Of a DNA stretch of 64,000 nt, positions 2,894 through 57,062 are shown piece by piece. Positions within the stretch are counted from its first letter, which is position 1, and every line of letters starts with the position of its first letter. A program made the position numbers and the translations under genes. The notes under the pieces are model-generated. The model was not told the origin of the DNA and did not search any database. It saw nothing but the letters and a program-made list of their open reading frames with translations. Source of the DNA: Candidatus Kapaibacterium sp. (lineage in GTDB: Bacteria > Bacteroidota > Ignavibacteria > Palsa-1295); the NCBI GenBank assembly GCA_017882165.1, contig JADGPZ010000003.1, positions 878-64,877 of the forward strand, in the 5' to 3' direction.

Positions 2894-2925
2894 CTACCTG
2901 TAGCGACGTTTCGATCTTTGTCAAT

Positions 2926-3147
2926 TCAGAGCTTTTCCCACTCTTCGCGGGAGATATGCGCTTGGCGTAAGACCTTTTTCAACAGGTCAATCGCAATATC
3001 TCCGCGATGCGGATTAGGAATTTTGACTCTGCGAGAAACACCGATGTTCATGTAATCGTGATCACCTCCAGCACGAGGGCCATCAAACCCGGCGCGCCGG
3101 AGTGACGCGATCAAATCACGACGGCTAATGGGTCCGAAATGCGGCAT
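2926..3147 (-). CDS. hicA: HicA-family mRNA interferase toxin
   Basis: 73 aa. By my recollection the sequence resembles YcfA/HicA toxins. It overlaps the upstream hicB by 1 nt (TGATG). Confidence 0.6.
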   Translation of the reverse strand: MPHFGPISRRDLIASLRRAGFDGPRAGGDHDYMNIGVSRRVKIPNPHRGDIAIDLLKKVLRQAHISREEWEKL

Positions 3148-3386
3148 CAGGCTGGGACGTGCTCGTTGATGTCAATGCTATCGATAACCGGAATCTCAGC
3201 CCCATCGCGAAGACCGAGGATAAGCCACCCCTCGAGCGTACCTCGAAGGTCCTTCTCCGTATCCGCTAACGTCAACTCGTTCGCCCAGACTCCGTTGCAC
3301 TCAGGGATCTCTCCGTAAAATGACTTATCTTCTAAAATCTCGTATCTCGCGTGCCGCATCGCGGCGTCGATATATTCGGTCAGCAT
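3147..3386 (-). CDS. hicB: HicB-family antitoxin (UPF0150)
   Basis: 79 aa, ATG start, acidic. Translationally coupled to hicA, a typical type II TA organisation. Confidence 0.55.
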   Translation of the reverse strand: MLTEYIDAAMRHARYEILEDKSFYGEIPECNGVWANELTLADTEKDLRGTLEGWLILGLRDGAEIPVIDSIDINEHVPA

Positions 3387-3647
3387 GATTTTTTAACCGC
3401 GTCCGTAGCGAGGAAGTTCAGCCGTAGGGAGCCTCACCGCAGCAACATAACCGGCAGCGTGTGGACGCGGCCGTGCAGCGGATGATGCACTCGTACGCAC
3501 CCGACGCGGCGCAGGCATTCTCGGCTGCACCCTGGCGAGGCATCGCTCTCGGCCGGCATGCAGCAAGCGCCGCCGGAACCGGTGGCCGCGCAACATTTGC
3601 AGTGGGAATCGTTAGATTACCTTTCCCACACACGTTATCGAGATGCA

Positions 3648-4412
3648 ATGCTGAAGTTCACGGCCGTTTTTCTGCTTGGCGTAGCACTTCCGCATTTGAT
3701 TCATGCGCAGCAGCATCCGTTTAGGTCGGTTAGCTCTCAAGCCATAACCCTTTCCGAGCCTGAACTCGCAAGCATGGAGACAAAACAGGATCCGGGTACG
3801 GTTTTGGATAGCGGGCGATCTCTTGTGTTCTCAGCACGCACGGTCACCATTGTGATTCGCACCGGGCCGAGCGATGATATGCTCTCATATCGGATTCAGG
3901 GTCTACGAAATCCTACGCTCGACTTCCGACCTGGCGTCGAAGTGCACCTCCTCTTAGCAAACATGGACGATGACATGCACCACGATTTGCGTTTCGGCCG
4001 CAAGATGCACGCGTACATGCCCAATCCGGATACGGCTGGAACCGTTGGAACACACCGTCTTGCTCCTTCTCAGAGCGAGAAGTTCTCCGCTGAAGAAATC
4101 GTGTTCCGTTCGGTGGATACCGGGACGTTCAGCTACTTTTGCAGCGTCAAGGGGCATGCGGCTGGTGGCATGTCAGGGCATATTGTCATCGGAAGTAATC
4201 CTGCCTCTCTGGCGGCGATGCTAATTGGCCAATCTCCGATGAAGATGAGGACCACCGATGCTGGCTCACCGATGGACATGAAGCAAAGTGGCATGGAGAT
4301 GAAGTCTGGGACGATGATGGACTCAAGCAGGACGATGAAGCCGGGCATGAACATGGAACACTCCATGAACGGCCCGGCAAGTGGGGTCCTCCTCACGGAG
4401 CCGATGTCATAG
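3648..4412 (+). CDS. Secreted rusticyanin-like type-1 copper protein (cupredoxin) with a Met-rich C-terminal tail
   Basis: Signal peptide MLKFTAVFLLGVALPHLIHAQQ from ATG 3648. Cu-site motif YFCSVKGHAAGGMSGHIVIG (C-x4-H-x4-M; Cys codon 4140-4142) matches my recollection of rusticyanin (CQIPGHAATGMFGKIVV). Tail MKMRTTDAGSPMDMKQSGMEMKSGTMMDSSRTMKPGMNMEHSMNG resembles CopB/PcoB Cu(I)-binding Met motifs. The ORF ends at TAG 4410-4412, in frame with the next ORF. Confidence 0.7.
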   Translation: MLKFTAVFLLGVALPHLIHAQQHPFRSVSSQAITLSEPELASMETKQDPGTVLDSGRSLVFSARTVTIVIRTGPSDDMLSYRIQGLRNPTLDFRPGVEVHLLLANMDDDMHHDLRFGRKMHAYMPNPDTAGTVGTHRLAPSQSEKFSAEEIVFRSVDTGTFSYFCSVKGHAAGGMSGHIVIGSNPASLAAMLIGQSPMKMRTTDAGSPMDMKQSGMEMKSGTMMDSSRTMKPGMNMEHSMNGPASGVLLTEPMS

Positions 4413-4463
4413 GAGGGCTCTGGGACAAGTTGGCTTCCCGCATCCTCGCCGGTCTATGCGTCA

Positions 4464-5543
4464 ATGTACGAGAGTAATGGCTGGATGTCCATGCTGCACG
4501 GATCGATAATGCCGCGATTCGATCATCAGGGCGGGCCACGCGGCGGAGGTAAGTTTGATGCGCCGAATTGGATCATGGGGATGCTGAGCCATGACATCGG
4601 GAGTGACGGTCGCCTCACCTTCCGAGGAATGTTCAGTCTTGAGCCGTTAACCGAGGGCAGTTGTTATCCGATGCTGTTTCAAACGGGAGATACCTGGCAG
4701 GGTCAGCCCCTGATTGATTACAAAGATCCTCACAATCTCTTTAGCGAACTATCGGCAACGTACAGCCAACGATTGGCCGACCACTCATCGGCCTTCCTTT
4801 ACATCGGCTACCCGGGCGAACCAGCGCTTGGCCCCTCGGTCTTCATGCACCGACCGAGCGCGATGTCGAATCCCGATGCGCCGATCAGCCATGATTGGAT
4901 GGCCGGGACGCACATTACATTCGGAGTCGCGACTGTTGGCGTCAGCCTCGGTAATTGGAAATTGGAAGGGAGTGCGTTCAACGGAAGTGCGCCCCAGAGT
5001 CTGTATGGCTTCGATAAGCCGACGATCAATTCCTACAGTGGCCGGCTGTCGTTCAATCCGACTAACGAACTTTCCTTTCAGATATCCAGTGGACACATCA
5101 CAAATCCCGGAGGCGATAGCGTCGATCTCATCCGCTCCACCGCGTCGGCCATGTACACAAAGAATTTTGGTGACGGTTCGTGGTGGGCAACGACACTCTG
5201 TTGGGGTGAAAATCATGAGATACATTTCGCGAAGGAAGAAGCTCTCCTTCTCGAGTCGCAATACACGATTGAGGACTACAGTTTCTTTGGCCGAACCGTT
5301 TACGTTCAAAAGTCGGATGTTGAACTGGCATTCTCAGATAGCAGAACGCAACTCCATGATCTATCTGATGCAGCCATCGGGTTAACCCGGACCCTCTTCG
5401 ATCTTGCTGGAATGGAAGCTGGGATTGGCGCCCAGATTTCATATCATTTTGTACCAGAGTCCTTGCGTCCCCTCTACTCTGCTCATCCGGTTTCCTTTGA
5501 GCTATTCTTTGAAGTTCACTCTACCATCATGTCCGGAATGTGA
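4464..5543 (+). CDS. Putative outer-membrane beta-barrel protein (CopB-like?) without its own signal peptide; likely the C-terminal continuation of the upstream cupredoxin through an in-frame TAG
   Basis: 359 aa with an alternating amphipathic beta-strand pattern. N-terminus MYESNGWMSMLHG has no signal peptide. Same reading frame as 3648..4412, separated only by TAG 4410-4412. Confidence 0.45.
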   Translation: MYESNGWMSMLHGSIMPRFDHQGGPRGGGKFDAPNWIMGMLSHDIGSDGRLTFRGMFSLEPLTEGSCYPMLFQTGDTWQGQPLIDYKDPHNLFSELSATYSQRLADHSSAFLYIGYPGEPALGPSVFMHRPSAMSNPDAPISHDWMAGTHITFGVATVGVSLGNWKLEGSAFNGSAPQSLYGFDKPTINSYSGRLSFNPTNELSFQISSGHITNPGGDSVDLIRSTASAMYTKNFGDGSWWATTLCWGENHEIHFAKEEALLLESQYTIEDYSFFGRTVYVQKSDVELAFSDSRTQLHDLSDAAIGLTRTLFDLAGMEAGIGAQISYHFVPESLRPLYSAHPVSFELFFEVHSTIMSGM

Positions 5544-5799
5544 GTGGACTCCTTTGGGAAGTGTTTTGCCCGATAGCAGCTTCGGACAGCCAAGCTGGGA
5601 TTGCGGTCAACGCCACAGTGGTGTAGCGAGGTCAACCGGCGCGCAGATTACGAAGCCGCATAGGATCAGAGCAAGCGCCTTGACCCCCGAACGCCAGCGG
5701 TTGTTCGGGATGTTCAGATTCAACATATTAGTCGTGGCCTCTGGCCCGACCGAATTGTCACGGACGTTCTGGTTATCTCCGCGCGTGGCTTCCGTCAAA

Positions 5800-5930
5800 C
5801 CCCTCGCTTTTTCGGTCGGGCCAGAGTCACCGACCTACGCGTCTCGCTGGGCCGGGAAACCCGGCCACTACAGTTTGGCATTTCGTGTGCTGTGTTATGG
5901 TGTGGTTAGGGGCACCAATTAGCTCATTGA
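5800..5930. repeat. Hairpin-rich intergenic repeat element (includes ggccgggaaacccggcc 5849-5873)
   Basis: Shares gggccgggaaacccgg.ctaca with 11990-12014, followed by a similar gtgtt..ggttaggggcacc tract. Confidence 0.4.
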
Positions 5931-6255
5931 CAATGGATTCTGGGCGATTCATGAAAGAGACCGGCTCAATTGGCGAAATCCGTTCGTTTTGGGATATGAA
6001 AAGAACAAACACACGAAGCCGGATTTTCTTCCGGATGTGAAGATGCGGTGCCGTTAACTTTTCTTACGTTATCGTAAAGATAGCTAACGGTCGAAGCATG
6101 ACGCTCGCTGACTAAAGCGCGGAAGGCTTGCTCGGCAGCGCAGCCTTTCTCATACAACGGGATTGGCACAGAGACTGCTACTGTTCTTCCGGTTCGTCAA
6201 TCGGTTGAGTTGAGACACTCTCCCGCTAATCCGAAAAACGATAATAAAAGGAGCC

Positions 6256-7557
6256 GTGCGCATCAGCATGATTCGGAATAATTTTATCTTCGCCGCAGCA
6301 ATCGCGGTCACAGTCCTCGCCACAAACGGACAGTCCGCTCGGGCAAATCCGCTCTTTGCGCGGCAGTACAACACGTCGTGCTTCACGTGCCACACCTCTC
6401 CCCCGCTGCTCAATGAGTACGGCCGCCGGTTTCAGGCGAACGGCTACCAATTGCCGACGACGAGTGATAACATGGCGCAGGCAGCGCGGTCGGTGTTTCC
6501 GCTCGGACTTGTGGTGACGCCCATGGTGATGCACTCGCAGGTCCATGACAATCTCGCGGACAGCGCGATTTCGAGTTCGACCACGATTACCGGAATCATG
6601 ATGCGGTTCTTTACATCGGCATCGCTCGGGCAGCACTTCTCGTATTATGCCGGCATCCCGGTGACGGTCGCGAATGGCGAGACGAGCGTCGAGATCGAGA
6701 CGATCCATCTGCTCTACACCGATGTGCTCGGCGATGGACGCGGCGCGCTCAATTTCCAGATGGGCAAATTCCTGCTCTTCGCTCCGTTCACGCCGATGTT
6801 CTTGCTTTCCGGCGACGACCCGATCGTGTACAACGCCATGCACTACAAACCCATCGGCGAGAAGTTCGCTGCGAACGATATGAGCCTGACGAACCCGATG
6901 TTCGGCGCGAGCGCCTTCGGAACGCTCTATGGCATCGGACAGGGACTCCGCTGGCAAGTTGGAATGGTCGGCGGCAACAACAGCGACGTCGATCTCTCGA
7001 CCGCGCGCGCATTCTTCGGCTCGCTCGATCAAACCGTATTCTTCCACAATGCCCCTGCCCGATTTGGTGGCTTTTACTTCACAGGTTATCAGGATCTTTC
7101 GAGTTCGGAACCGGGGACATCAACCGCGATGGCAGGTATGCCTGGCATGGGAGGCAGTTCCGGCACGGGGCTTCTCAACCCGTGGCACAACAACGTAACG
7201 CGATTCGGCGGCGACTTGGAAATATACGACCCGTGGACCAAGCGGTTTGACTTCTTTGCGCAGTACATGGCGTGCGTGGACGACAACGTCGATAGCCTCG
7301 GGACGTCTTACAAAATGAGAGGCGGGTTCTTCGGCGTCAATGTGATTCTCATGCCGGAGAAACTCTACGCCTACGCCAGATACGATTGGATGCAGCGACT
7401 CACATATAAGAACGACCTTAGCGCCATTGATGTGGGCGTGCGATACCACGTCCTTCCGAACGTCGTCGTGACCGGCGGCGCGACGATCGCCAAAGAGGTA
7501 TCACTCATCGACCAGACGACGACATCCATTCGCGGCGGATTTCTTTTCGGATTCTAA
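6256..7557 (+). CDS. Cyc2-like fused monoheme cytochrome c / outer-membrane porin (candidate Fe(II) oxidase or extracellular electron-transfer protein)
   Basis: Signal peptide, then a single CxxCH (NPLFARQYNTSCFTCHTSPP) within ~25 aa of the mature N-terminus. The remaining ~380 aa are beta-strand-rich and end in GGFLFGF (C-terminal Phe of OM barrels). GTG 6256 or ATG 6268 start. Confidence 0.6.
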   Translation: MRISMIRNNFIFAAAIAVTVLATNGQSARANPLFARQYNTSCFTCHTSPPLLNEYGRRFQANGYQLPTTSDNMAQAARSVFPLGLVVTPMVMHSQVHDNLADSAISSSTTITGIMMRFFTSASLGQHFSYYAGIPVTVANGETSVEIETIHLLYTDVLGDGRGALNFQMGKFLLFAPFTPMFLLSGDDPIVYNAMHYKPIGEKFAANDMSLTNPMFGASAFGTLYGIGQGLRWQVGMVGGNNSDVDLSTARAFFGSLDQTVFFHNAPARFGGFYFTGYQDLSSSEPGTSTAMAGMPGMGGSSGTGLLNPWHNNVTRFGGDLEIYDPWTKRFDFFAQYMACVDDNVDSLGTSYKMRGGFFGVNVILMPEKLYAYARYDWMQRLTYKNDLSAIDVGVRYHVLPNVVVTGGATIAKEVSLIDQTTTSIRGGFLFGF

Positions 7558-7569
7558 CCAACGCAGATC

Positions 7570-8349
7570 ATGATTCTCCAATCCATTACCACCATCTGCG
7601 CGATCGGCGTCATTGCCGGTAGTTCGCTTACACTCGATCGGCCCAGCGCCGGATCGGATACGCCGGGCGCAGCTTCCGTCCCATCCGAGATGATCGCACG
7701 CGGCAAGACGGTCTTTGACATCGGCTGCTCGCCGTGCCATGGACTCGAAGGAGCGGGCGATGGCCCGCTCTCCGCCAATTTCCGGACACGCCCGCGCGAT
7801 CTCACGAAGGGTGTATACAAGAGCAGGTCCACGGCAAGCGGCCAGCTCCCCACCGATGATGACATCGACCGCGCAATCAGCGCAGGTATTCACACCAGCA
7901 CGATGCCGCCGTATCTCAAGATGTCGCCGGATGACCGCGCCGCAGTGGTGCAATACCTCAAGACGCTCGCCGTGCGCTTTACGGATTCGACCGAGTACCC
8001 GCTGGAAGTCCTCACGTTCAACCAACCGATTCCGGCAACTCCGCAGAGTATTGCGCTGGGTCGCGCAGCCTATATAAAGATGCAGTGCGATAACTGCCAC
8101 GGTGCATTTGGCAAAGGCGATGGCGTGTCATCAGAACTTCAGCACGATGATTTCGGCAACTACGTCCACACCACGGATCTCACGAACGCTTCCGATTTCA
8201 AATTCGCCCAGTCGGCGCAAGATGTCTATCGCATCTTCTCGACCGGCATGAACGGCTCACCGATGCCCTCCTATGCCGGGACGCTTCAGGACTCCGACCG
8301 CTGGCATCTCGCGAACTACGTGTGGGGTTTGCACGGTGGCGAGCGGTGA
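7570..8349 (+). CDS. Diheme c-type cytochrome (class I, c4/Cyc1-like), periplasmic
   Basis: Two CxxCH motifs (GCSPCHG and CDNCHGAFG) with Met candidates as sixth ligands, N-terminal signal/TM. Lies 12 nt downstream of the Cyc2-like gene. Confidence 0.7.
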   Translation: MILQSITTICAIGVIAGSSLTLDRPSAGSDTPGAASVPSEMIARGKTVFDIGCSPCHGLEGAGDGPLSANFRTRPRDLTKGVYKSRSTASGQLPTDDDIDRAISAGIHTSTMPPYLKMSPDDRAAVVQYLKTLAVRFTDSTEYPLEVLTFNQPIPATPQSIALGRAAYIKMQCDNCHGAFGKGDGVSSELQHDDFGNYVHTTDLTNASDFKFAQSAQDVYRIFSTGMNGSPMPSYAGTLQDSDRWHLANYVWGLHGGER

Positions 8350-8419
8350 GTAGCGACCGGTCACCCACAAGGATCATACATCGAATTGCATTGATGTTAG
8401 AACAACCTACTCTGGTGCT

Positions 8420-8680
8420 ATGGCAATCTATTTTACTCGTCACGCTCGGCAACGGCTGAAACTCTATCGGATCGACAGGAAAGCAGTTGAAGACGTTCTG
8501 ACCGACATCCGAGCCGATGAGGAGCCTATTGGCGAGAACCGGGAATTTGTCGCGGAGGCCTTTGTTCAAACCATCGGGTATCCGCTCAAGATCGCCTACA
8601 TTCGCGAAGTCGCTCGGGTGGTCGTCAAAACGCTGTATCCACTCGATAGAAAGACGAAATATGAAGATATCGTACGATAA
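8420..8680 (+). CDS. DUF4258-family protein (putative toxin of a TA-like pair)
   Basis: 86 aa. Overlaps the DUF2283 gene by 20 nt. DUF4258/DUF2283 pairing is recurrent by my recollection. Confidence 0.5.
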   Translation: MAIYFTRHARQRLKLYRIDRKAVEDVLTDIRADEEPIGENREFVAEAFVQTIGYPLKIAYIREVARVVVKTLYPLDRKTKYEDIVR

Positions 8681-8876
8681 AGAAGCAGACGCCGCTTATA
8701 TCCAGCTTTCGGATGAACAACCCGTGGCCGCCATCGAGGCCGGTGACGGCATAAACATTGACCTCACGGCCGACAAACGAATCGTCGGAATTGAAATTCT
8801 TGACGCTTCCAAAAAACTCTCGATCGACACACTCTACAAGTACGAGGTCGAGCAGGATGAGTTTGTAGGAGTGTAA
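8661..8876 (+). CDS. DUF2283-family protein (putative antitoxin partner)
   Basis: N-terminus MKISYDKEADAAYIQLSDE matches the DUF2283 signature (MKI.YD.EADA.YI.L). ATG at 8661. Confidence 0.55.
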   Translation: MKISYDKEADAAYIQLSDEQPVAAIEAGDGINIDLTADKRIVGIEILDASKKLSIDTLYKYEVEQDEFVGV

Positions 8877-8905
8877 AGCCGCGCAGGCACGTCGCCCTTT
8901 CATCC

Positions 8906-9547
8906 CTACTTCGGATACCCGACTGACTGAGCGAACAGCACTCGCTGTTCCGGTCGCAATCCGAGCTGCTGCGCGAGACCGGCCTTGTCGCAGTTGTGGA
9001 ACCAGGCCCCAAGTCCATGCGCCGCGGCGAACAGATACACGTTCGCGGCAATCATGCCGGTACTCACATAGTCGTACGACTTCTGCACGTCCGGATCGAG
9101 CAGCCCCGGCTCCTGAAATCCCGCCGTGTGAGTCAGACGATGAGTGTCAGCAACGTAGATTAGCTGCACGGGCGCGCTCGCCTCAACGCCCCGCTGACCG
9201 GGCGTCATCGCACCGGCTCGCAAGTCGCCTTCGACGACTGGCTCAAGCAAGTTATGTATCGCGTCATAGAGATACACACCATCCTCGAATGCCACATACA
9301 AATCGACCGCCTGCGAATTACTGGCAGAGGCTGCCGTCCGGCCGTAAATTCCGAGCGGACCAGTGCTGCGGTTCACGCCACAGGCAGCCCAAAGGAGATT
9401 TGAAGTCATCTGCCAAGGCAGAGGCGATGGGCTAATTCCCCGCGTTGTTTCTCGGCGCCAAAGTGATTCGAAGACCGAGAGCCCTCCTTCGTCAGCCGGT
9501 TTGGGAAGCTGAATCGCAGTTAGGGTTTGTGTTAATACGTTGTTCAT
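8906..9547 (-). CDS. Nitroreductase-family / SagB-type dehydrogenase domain protein
   Basis: 213 aa from ATG 9547 (MNNVLTQ...). Nitroreductase-like sequence by my recollection. Confidence 0.55.
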   Translation of the reverse strand: MNNVLTQTLTAIQLPKPADEGGLSVFESLWRRETTRGISPSPLPWQMTSNLLWAACGVNRSTGPLGIYGRTAASASNSQAVDLYVAFEDGVYLYDAIHNLLEPVVEGDLRAGAMTPGQRGVEASAPVQLIYVADTHRLTHTAGFQEPGLLDPDVQKSYDYVSTGMIAANVYLFAAAHGLGAWFHNCDKAGLAQQLGLRPEQRVLFAQSVGYPK

Positions 9548-25627: not shown

Positions 25628-26172
25628 ATTGATTGGCCATTACAACGCACCAAAACGCCTTTCATTCCGCAGCCCGCGATATTCCCCCTCGTCGGCATTG
25701 CGAGAAGGCCGAAGGCCGGTCCCGAGGAAACGAGGGAAGCAATCCCGTCTCGTTAGCCTGAACTCCACGGACGACTACGACTGACCTGACTTAAGCCCTA
25801 CCTGCCACAAGGCAAATAGCTTTCATCTGCTTGTTTGTTCTTTCAAAGTTCATGAACCCGCTGTGGCGGGCCGCAAATGCGCTGATTTCGCGATCTTGCC
25901 TTTCACAGAGCAGTCAATTTCTCTCTTTTGAATTGTCATTTAATGAACGCCCTCTCCTTACCCATGAGCCGCGATGAATCAATTGTCAATGAGCAAATTG
26001 CCGGCACCTCTTGTCATCCTTCATCCATCAGCCTTCATCCTTTTCCCCAGAAATGGTGCCTATGACCATCACAACCAATATACGACACGAAAAACCCCGA
26101 TGCAAGCACTTTCGCAAAAATTCGTAAAATTGTTGCGACCGTGGATCATCACAGTGCCGGAGGCACGCAATG

Positions 26173-26355
26173 TTAGTAGCCGGTGACGCAAGTCACCGGG
26201 TGGCGAGCGGTATGAGATTCAGAGTCCCGAAAGGGACGGCATGTGTCGCTGGCAGAAGATTGCATGTCGTCACTCCGTGACTTTCCGGATCGCGCGGGCA
26301 TCGTTTCCGGTGACTCACGTCACCGGCTACCAACATTCCGTCCCGTTGGGACTCG
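26173..26355. repeat. Two tandem ~127-bp-spaced modules, each a perfect palindrome CCGGTGAC-N4-GTCACCGG (26180-26199; 26307-26326) followed by a GTCCC-N4-GGGAC hairpin (26224-26237; 26340-26352)
   Basis: Read directly; lies in a 0.9-kb non-coding stretch at the edge of the low-GC island. Confidence 0.5.
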
Positions 26356-56829: not shown

Positions 56830-56902
<73 letters not shown>

Positions 56903-56988: not shown

Positions 56989-57062
56989 GGAGTGGTAGTT
57001 CAGTTGGTTAGAACGCCTGCCTGTCACGTAGGAGGTCGCGGGTTCGAGTCCCGTCCGCTCCG
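56989..57062 (+). tRNA. tRNA-Asp (anticodon GUC)
   Basis: GGAGTGGTAGTTCAGTTGGTTAGAACGCCTGCCTGTCACGTAGGAGGTCGCGGGTTCGAGTCCCGTCCGCTCCG is near-identical in pattern to canonical bacterial tRNA-Asp; discriminator G73. Confidence 0.9.

Follow-up and report, generated by a model that had tools for sequence, protein, structure and literature searches.

Iron-oxidising bacteria use Cyc2 to draw electrons from dissolved Fe(II), and in metagenomes it is the main genomic marker from which microbial iron oxidation is inferred. Keffer et al. 2021 (PMC8406198) define it by a signal peptide, a single CXXCH motif, a PXL motif just downstream of it and a length of at least 365 amino acids (aa), and describe a further motif upstream of CXXCH, AXPXFAR[Q/K][T/Y], which they state to be found in Cyc2 only. 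The same authors report that the Cyc2 porin has 16 strands and is structurally similar to OprO/OprP, and that it is poorly conserved whilst the cytochrome domain is conserved, with 17–23% full-length identity between Cyc2 clusters. Here we describe a cyc2-like gene at positions 6256..7557 (+ strand) of a 64,000-nucleotide stretch of DNA from Candidatus Kapaibacterium sp. (contig JADGPZ010000003.1; the whole stretch is referred to as the window), whose product is almost certainly a cytochrome-porin of the Cyc2 superfamily, a monoheme cytochrome c fused to a predicted outer-membrane β-barrel.

In Acidithiobacillus ferrooxidans, the genes of the rus operon are arranged in the order cyc2-cyc1-...-rus. 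Compared by description only, the window resembles this operon (PMC7029218) in that the cytochrome-porin gene lies directly before a gene for a diheme cytochrome c, and the proposed flow of electrons in both runs from the outer membrane through the periplasm to an oxidase. The window differs in that its diheme partner appears to be related to Kuenenia 6h5l_B rather than to c4, that it holds no aa3 oxidase genes, and that its rusticyanin-like domain sits in a broken copper-associated gene outside the cyc2-like operon. MtrCAB, MtoAB and PioAB likewise transfer electrons across the outer membrane via a barrel (PMC8406198), as the sequence would predict for the protein described here, but they use a separate decaheme cytochrome within a 26-strand barrel, whereas here one heme would be carried by a domain fused to a smaller barrel of the 16-strand class.

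Sequence signature and relatives of the cyc2-like protein

The cyc2-like open reading frame (ORF) is found at exactly the coordinates given in the first-pass annotation, which had described it as a Cyc2-like fusion of a cytochrome and a porin. It encodes 433 aa from a GTG at 6256, with an AAGGAG box upstream at 6248..6253 and a stop codon at 7555..7557; starting from an alternative ATG at 6268, it yields the 429-aa NCBI gene call P0001, with 100% identity. By inspection, the N-terminus (MRISMIRNNFIFAAAIAVTVLATNGQSARA followed by NPLFARQYNTSCFTCHTSPPLLNEYGRRF) shows the basic n-region, the hydrophobic core and the A-x-A site of a classical signal peptide, predicted to span aa 1–30 (6256..6345, + strand) with cleavage between SARA and NP; if cleaved after A30, the mature protein starts with NPLFARQYNTSCFTCHTSPPLLNEYGRRF. 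The sole heme c site, CFTCH (C42, C45 and H46; 6379..6393, + strand), lies in the context ANPLFARQYNTSCFTCHTSPPLL, begins 12 residues into the predicted mature protein and is invariant in 32/32 aligned homologs. A motif scan of the full sequence detected this one CxxCH and no CxxxCH, CxxxxCH or CxxCK, so the earlier statements that a single CxxCH lies near the mature N-terminus and that no further heme motif follows both hold. The protein has three cysteines in total (42, 45 and 340), and the translation agrees with the earlier reading that it terminates in GGFLFGF, with a terminal Phe.

The signature motif A-N-P-L-F-A-R-Q-Y (A30..Y38; 6343..6369, + strand) matches the AXPXFAR[Q/K][T/Y] of PMC8406198. 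The PXL motif, P50-L51-L52 (6403..6411, + strand), is followed by N-E-Y-G-R and parallels the PALNAFGR of Cyc2PV-1, a Cluster 1 Fe(II) oxidase, in a pairwise alignment. Common to the two proteins are a signal peptide ending in Ala, xPxFAR, five residues, CxxCH and PxLNx[FY]GR. Cyc2PV-1 reads SEA/IPAFARQ at the signal-peptide junction. In both proteins signal peptidase is predicted to cut right after the Ala of “AXP” (position −1), which therefore places the heme site about a dozen residues from the mature N-terminus. Residues P32, F34, A35, C42, C45, H46, P50, L52, N53 and G56 are invariant among the 32 aligned homologs; since the surroundings of the heme motif are held invariant along with it, the motif is under constraint and is not a chance CxxCH.

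Exactly one CxxCH is present in 51/54 close family members, and the R-to-C spacing (R36 to C42 in the window protein) is 5 in 52 close homologs as well as in 114 Zetaproteobacterial Cyc2 sequences. The gap between the heme-ligating H and the following P is three residues in the cyc2-like protein and in most of its 145 nearest representatives, compared to four in Zetaproteobacterial Cyc2; the PXL proline accordingly stands at +4 from H46 here and at +5 there. Every testable element of the published definition, in sequence and in architecture, is found in the protein, namely the signal peptide (by inspection), the single CXXCH, the signature motif, PXL, the length and the porin. The gene is under purifying selection, with a ratio of non-synonymous to synonymous substitution (dN/dS) of ~0.09 against its ortholog in locus L043 of the closest sequenced relative (dN 0.21; dS ~2.3, saturated).

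For a comparison with an authentic Cyc2, the tandem mass spectrometry (MS) peptides of Cyc2PV-1 in Table S1 of PMC8406198 were concatenated and used as the query. The top match was P0209, a 436-aa protein of Mariprofundus ferrooxydans, which holds the peptides that were spot-checked by eye, including QTGAACLSCHFQTFPALNAFGR and the C-terminal TVNGG...IEFEGLL; two MS peptides deviate from P0209 by one or two residues, which we take to be transcription errors in the table. On the strength of the peptides checked, P0209 was identified as Cyc2PV-1. In BLASTP, the cyc2-like protein aligns with Cyc2PV-1 at 35% identity over 57 residues (E = 5e-7), in the cytochrome region only. With hhalign, a 32-sequence family alignment matched 34 Zetaproteobacterial Cyc2 with Prob 97.8% and E = 8e-13 over 375 collinear columns at 18% identity, and a broader family profile of 170 sequences matched the same set with Prob 99.3% and E = 1e-20. 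With the family hidden Markov model (HMM), Cyc2PV-1 reached 48 bits (E = 7e-8 when scaled to 1.8 billion sequences), and the cytochrome domains alone, compared profile against profile, gave Prob 98.5% and E = 3e-15. These matches indicate that the cytochrome domain is homologous to that of the characterised Fe(II) oxidase Cyc2PV-1.

These comparisons covered Zetaproteobacterial Cyc2 and no Gallionellaceae, Chlorobium or Acidithiobacillus sequences, so that Cluster 1 was represented by its Zetaproteobacterial members only. In the reverse direction, the Zetaproteobacterial Cyc2 HMM scored the cyc2-like protein at 25.5 bits (E = 0.57 at library scale), and none of the 145 nearest representatives exceeded 55 bits, which places the protein outside Cluster 1. 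The first-pass annotation had matched the protein to the known Cyc2 architecture; the profile match to Zetaproteobacterial Cyc2 supports this, even though the Cluster 1 sequences compared are only distant relatives of the protein. Neither Pfam nor NCBIfam has a model matching the cyc2-like protein, so no curated profile confirms or contradicts the Cyc2 assignment, and a best match to an unrelated porin family, which would have spoken against that assignment, did not appear in either. PDB sequence searches with the protein and the family profile returned nothing meaningful, a word-indexed profile search retrieved the close family only and did not reach known Cyc2, and cluster look-ups of ten distant representatives gave uninformative names.

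An AlphaFold2 model computed with the 32-sequence alignment predicts a β-barrel porin domain over aa 84–433 (6505..7554, + strand), the topology expected from the first-pass annotation, with a long internal loop of short helices at aa 173–214 and the C-terminal Phe at its end. The mean predicted local distance difference test score (pLDDT) is 77.7 and the predicted template modelling score is 0.75, with the barrel blocks mostly at pLDDT 80–94. DSSP assigns 19 strand segments to the model, or ~17 after joining two kinked pairs. The best structural match of the modelled barrel is the phosphate porin OprP (PDB 2o4v) at 11% identity, with other general porins scoring nearly as high; OprP/OprO have no heme domain and no match to the protein at the sequence level. 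The modelled fold is predicted to be that of the 16-strand porins, and its likeness to OprP agrees with what has been reported for Cyc2 (PMC8406198). The C-terminal Phe and the barrel fold are the two features consistent with an outer-membrane location.

Taken with the signature, the architecture and the cytochrome-domain profile match, the predicted barrel bears out the original description of a Cyc2-like cytochrome-porin fusion. Like Cyc2PV-1 (PMC8406198), the protein has a single heme site, a length of ~430 aa, a predicted OprP-like barrel and a significant profile match; it differs in its ~18% identity in the profile alignment, in having one residue fewer between CxxCH and PxL, in a C-terminus reading ...FGF rather than the ...EGLL of PV-1, in a barrel not detectably similar by sequence, and in its Bacteroidota host.

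A search of 5.8 billion proteins recovered ~50 clusters of close relatives, all full length and at 30–72% identity. All are labelled “hypothetical”, and such names as exist point to Bacteroidota, Candidatus Kapabacteria and Kryptobacter. When 1.84 billion representatives were searched exhaustively with the HMM, 4,121 proteins reached E ≤ 1e-3 and 128 of them E ≤ 1e-30; the contrast between these counts indicates that the close clade is a small branch of a large superfamily, and with a family so large and phylogenetically scattered the gene call alone is unsurprising. From contigs of one genome per species, 42 related loci were recovered, nearly all from bins of Ignavibacteriota, Kapaibacterium or Kryptoniota, with weaker relatives in Acidobacteriota and Gammaproteobacteria. 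The cyc2-like protein, which comes from a Kapabacteria-like soil bacterium, belongs to a separate and divergent Kapabacteria/Ignavibacteria/Kryptonia clade.

The EF-Tu and ribosomal protein L2 of the window share 90%-identity clusters with proteins of Candidatus Kapabacteria metagenome-assembled genomes (MAGs), and the window also carries a ribosomal protein operon, PGK, enolase and aconitase genes and a protein sorted by the type IX secretion system, from which it follows that the host is a Kapabacteria-like member of the Bacteroidota and that the cyc2-like gene is chromosomal. In the closest sequenced relative (GCA_030706365.1, locus L043), the neighbourhood is the same, running from aconitase through the cyc2-like and diheme genes to enolase. 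This common neighbourhood suggests vertical inheritance between the two genomes; the cyc2-like locus itself is rearranged relative to L043.

The diheme cytochrome and the gene neighbourhood

The gene that begins 12 nucleotides (nt) after the cyc2-like stop codon (7570..8349, + strand) encodes a diheme cytochrome c of 259 aa with an N-terminal hydrophobic export or anchor segment, two Pfam Cytochrom_C matches (E = 9e-23) and heme sites CSPCH at 7726..7740 and CDNCH at 8086..8100 (both + strand). It is proposed to be co-transcribed with the cyc2-like gene and to encode the periplasmic electron acceptor of the cytochrome-porin. A diheme gene lies immediately 3' of the cyc2-like gene in ~30/42 related loci, and the window copy is under purifying selection (dN/dS ~0.08 against the L043 ortholog; dN 0.19, dS ~2.3, saturated).

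With its two heme sites the diheme protein could serve as the periplasmic carrier that c4-type Cyc1 provides in the Cyc2 pathway, but none of its PDB sequence matches at E ≤ 0.01 bears the name cytochrome c4. The highest-ranking of them is chain B of 6h5l, the HAO-like enzyme of Kuenenia stuttgartiensis (E = 1e-52 over residues 36–254, with both heme sites conserved). We take this chain to be the diheme partner of the HAO-like octaheme protein; the window cytochrome is instead paired with a monoheme cytochrome-porin gene. It differs further in its N-terminus, which is a hydrophobic anchor or signal here and a lipoprotein box in one subgroup of the relatives. Cytochrome 579 of Leptospirillum is the periplasmic acceptor of the Cyc2 homolog Cyt572. 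The diheme protein also has a sub-threshold NCBIfam match to this cytochrome (E = 2e-10; 40.7 bits against a cut-off of 280), which probably reflects generic cytochrome c similarity.

In close relatives the operon runs in the order cupredoxin-like/CarboxypepD_reg gene, cyc2-like gene, diheme cytochrome and monoheme cytochrome, and ~4 kb beyond it lie a fused CcoN-CcoO cbb3-type oxidase gene and a CcoP-like gene. The cupredoxin-like partner, of 195–300 aa (250–300 aa in the operon of close relatives) with a C-terminal CarboxypepD_reg domain and an H...C-x(2-3)-H-x2-M pattern, is present in 25/42 loci and reaches the Pfam Copper-bind threshold in the Acidobacteriota member only. It lies upstream of the cyc2-like gene in L001, L002–L005, L007, L011 and L043, and downstream in L034/L037. 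Heme-copper oxidase subunit I is encoded in 13/42 loci and Rieske plus cytochrome b in 9/42; in Kryptonia-type loci, heme-copper oxidase subunit I and a SCO1-like gene stand directly upstream of the cyc2-like gene. A second and longer cyc2-like paralog, of 473–495 aa with the motif MPNFARKYSLGCSSCH, occurs in some genomes and is followed by a monoheme cytochrome, Rieske and cytochrome b genes, in a region immediately upstream of the main operon (L002 2352..6811; L003 3046..7043; L004 1816..5593). The context of the relatives, with its diheme cytochrome and cbb3 or bc-type genes, parallels the published scheme in which Cyc2 passes electrons to the diheme Cyc1 and on to a cbb3 oxidase or bc1 (PMC7029218).

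The window carries the two-gene core only, the cyc2-like and diheme cytochrome genes. Where relatives hold the cupredoxin-like/CarboxypepD_reg gene, it has ~700 bp without a convincing ORF (5544..6255), and no remnant of that partner gene was found there or across the window. A promoter and terminator scan of 5400..8950 remained at chance level, and Rfam has no family near the cyc2-like gene. In 13/42 loci, genes for PhoU, PstB and two-component regulators lie within 8 kb of the cyc2-like gene (L013, L015, L016, L018–L020, L023, L024 and L028–L031), a linkage that may be mere shared synteny among related genomes.

A broken copper-associated gene and other window features

In the interval 3648..5543 (+ strand), upstream of the cyc2-like gene, profiles and a comparison of the junction show a gene in which a rusticyanin-like cupredoxin is joined to a copper-associated protein and an in-frame TAG interrupts the reading frame. 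Its first part, the ORF 3648..4412 (+ strand), lies 1.8 kb upstream of the cyc2-like gene; the product has a signal peptide, then the rusticyanin-like cupredoxin and then a Met-rich tail. It scores 76.4 bits against NCBIfam TIGR03095, for which the cut-off is 146.7, and aligns with PDB rusticyanin at E = 1e-11 with all four copper ligands in register (His...Cys-x4-His-x4-Met). Since it falls below the equivalog cut-off, its sequence marks it as rusticyanin-like and not as rusticyanin.

A single in-frame TAG (4410..4412) separates this ORF from the ORF 4464..5543, and homology to relatives starts right after the TAG. The part after the TAG is a member of a family for which more than 511 relatives were found, apparently mostly from soil metagenomes to judge by the contig names. 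Family members normally open with a signal peptide, after which come a CPxH...CPKCGM metal-binding domain and a stretch rich in His and Met, and no other member examined carries a cupredoxin domain. At the junction, 51/80 loci of the family read PMSREGSGTSW and the window reads PMS*EGSGTSW, with the TAG replacing a conserved R/Q. As homology resumes after the TAG and the junction is conserved, 3648..5543 represents one gene broken by a nonsense mutation; the TAG is present in three independent assemblies that are 99.2–99.98% identical to the window. A first metagenome scan with the ORF 4413..5540 gave no match, and its single-sequence AlphaFold2 model (pLDDT 32) was unusable.

Plasmid-borne homologs adjoin copper P-type ATPases and other copper-resistance genes. 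No cyc2-like motif was found in any of the 80 loci of the copper-associated family, and no relative of that family in any of the 42 cyc2 loci. The gene is most likely one of copper homeostasis and not part of the Cyc2 pathway. The idea that ORF 3648..4412 completes an Acidithiobacillus-style chain was accordingly rejected as the main reading, the ORF being part of the broken copper-associated gene with no cyc2-like co-occurrence in the 80 loci.

Several smaller features lie around these genes. Between the aconitase and cupredoxin genes, ORFs on the − strand at 2894..3650 form a HicA/HicB-type toxin-antitoxin pair, for which the near-identical contig L044 carries an annotation. A second copy of ~70 bp from the 3' end of aconitase, at 3521..3593, suggests an insertion event. 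Directly after the diheme gene, two small overlapping ORFs (8420..8876, + strand), with a weak DUF4258-like match and a DUF2283 match at E = 5e-17, look like a further toxin-antitoxin pair; L043 has other genes at this position, and a nitroreductase gene on the opposite side of the operon. Elsewhere in the window there are an Rfam match to the small RNA Acido-Lenti-1 at 26153..26199 (− strand; 37.9 bits against a gathering score of 37) and two tRNAs (56830..56902 and 56989..57062).

Proposed electron path, alternatives and implications

In the mechanism we favour, removal of the signal peptide would leave an N-terminal domain of ~50 residues carrying one covalently bound heme c, fused to an OprP-class porin β-barrel that would sit in the outer membrane. 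Dissolved Fe(II) would enter the pore and be oxidised at the single heme, and the electron would pass from the heme of the cytochrome-porin to the diheme cytochrome c (7570..8349), which would hand it to a high-affinity respiratory oxidase encoded elsewhere in the genome. In relatives, this final step would likely fall to the cbb3-type oxidase with fused CcoNO, or to the Rieske/cytochrome b complex, encoded in the same gene cluster. Fe(II) oxidase activity we infer from family membership and gene context, the protein not being a Cluster 1 Cyc2, and the Fe(II) substrate, the outer-membrane location, the direction in which the electrons flow and the acceptor at the end of the chain are likewise inferred. 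Taken as a whole, this Fe(II)-oxidising mechanism is, in our judgement, somewhat more probable than its competitors together, which is well short of the near-certainty attached to the family assignment.

A number of observations weigh against it. Compared by themselves, the barrels of the family and of Zetaproteobacterial Cyc2 gave a non-significant Prob of 1.5–5%, despite the barrel halves being collinear over 278 columns with the broad profile; as no similarity between the porin sequences is detectable, it is architecture and fold class that carry the case for full-length homology, and sequence homology of the barrels is not claimed. The protein is, to judge from its ~18% identity, not a Cluster 1 Cyc2. 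The cytochrome domain of the model has a pLDDT of 38–59, as expected without heme, and the placement of the heme in the pore is for this reason unsupported by the model. By its sequence, the diheme partner is a homolog of Kuenenia 6h5l_B and not of a recognisable c4/Cyc1 type, and the whole 64-kb window contains no terminal oxidase, Rieske/cytochrome b or cupredoxin-like partner gene. No cultured Kapabacterium is known to oxidise iron, and in the literature searched no paper pairs Cyc2 with iron oxidation in Kapabacteria. The authors of the Cyc2 family themselves caution that in divergent clades the function has to be verified and may be a different one.

The strongest competitor follows from this caution and keeps the architecture whilst assigning it another job, such as exchange with humic quinones, Mn(II), reduced sulfur or other metals, an exit for electrons in the outward direction, or Fe(II) detoxification. 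The window clade is remote from every functionally tested Cyc2 compared, other functions in divergent clades are explicitly allowed by the family's authors, and Ignavibacteriaceae and Bacteroidetes MAGs have been reported in which Cyc2-like genes occur alongside genes for iron reduction. We nevertheless consider another job unlikely, if by no means negligible: the heme is surrounded by the same signature residues as in the iron oxidases, and a single heme in a narrow 16-strand pore suits a small dissolved donor, an argument taken from PMC8406198. The recurrent linkage to cbb3-type oxidase, cupredoxin-like genes and bc-type complexes points the same way, as it suggests that electrons enter an aerobic chain.

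Two further explanations are much less probable. The resemblance of the barrel to OprP, together with the PhoU, PstB and two-component genes within 8 kb in 13/42 related loci, could be read as the mark of an anion or phosphate porin whose N-terminal heme domain is a plug or sensor with no respiratory role. We regard such a porin as improbable, given that the identity to OprP is as low as 11% and other general porins score nearly as high, that the heme motif and its surroundings are the best-conserved part of the protein, that the tightly coupled neighbour is a diheme cytochrome and not a phosphate-uptake gene, and that pho-type genes are absent from the window and from its closest relative L043. 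Least probable of all is a decaying relic, in which the partner cupredoxin-like gene has been lost, the locus has been rearranged and the cyc2-like gene is possibly non-functional. The cupredoxin-like gene that precedes cyc2 in L043 is indeed missing from this rearranged locus, and the neighbouring gene 3648..5543 carries a nonsense codon; against decay, the cyc2-like reading frame is intact with all family-invariant residues kept, dN/dS is ~0.09 for the cyc2-like and diheme genes, the 12-nt spacing of the pair is preserved, and independent assemblies agree almost completely over the region.

Within this part of the tree, a Cyc2-like gene is not new in kind, since FeGenie-type surveys have already flagged Cyc2 hits in Ignavibacteriales, Ignavibacteriaceae and Bacteroidetes bins; one study of Chlorobi found Cyc2 in photoferrotrophic Chlorobi and not in their non-phototrophic close relatives. 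What we put forward tentatively, and with more doubt than confidence, is that the non-phototrophic sister classes of the Chlorobia (Kapabacteria, Ignavibacteria and Kryptonia) have a lineage-specific Cyc2 clade with a conserved electron-transfer module of its own. Besides the cytochrome-porin, this module may comprise a cupredoxin-like protein, two cytochromes (a diheme one of the Kuenenia type and a monoheme one) and, nearby, cbb3 or bc complexes. As the literature searched contains no paper discussing Cyc2 in Kapabacteria or Kryptonia, this clade-specific module may be undescribed.

Across the clade, the pairing with the diheme cytochrome, often with linkage to cbb3 or bc genes as well, leads to a concrete, testable electron path. 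The cyc2-like protein is also a candidate with which the use of Cyc2 to mark iron oxidation could be extended, or limited, beyond the validated Cluster 1. Photoferrotrophic Chlorobium acquired a proteobacterial-type Cyc2 by transfer (PMC9342728). If the module described here does oxidise Fe(II), then iron oxidation, or another form of electron uptake at the outer membrane, would be a widespread and unrecognised trait of these mostly soil and hot-spring heterotrophs, and one independent of the Cyc2 of Chlorobium.

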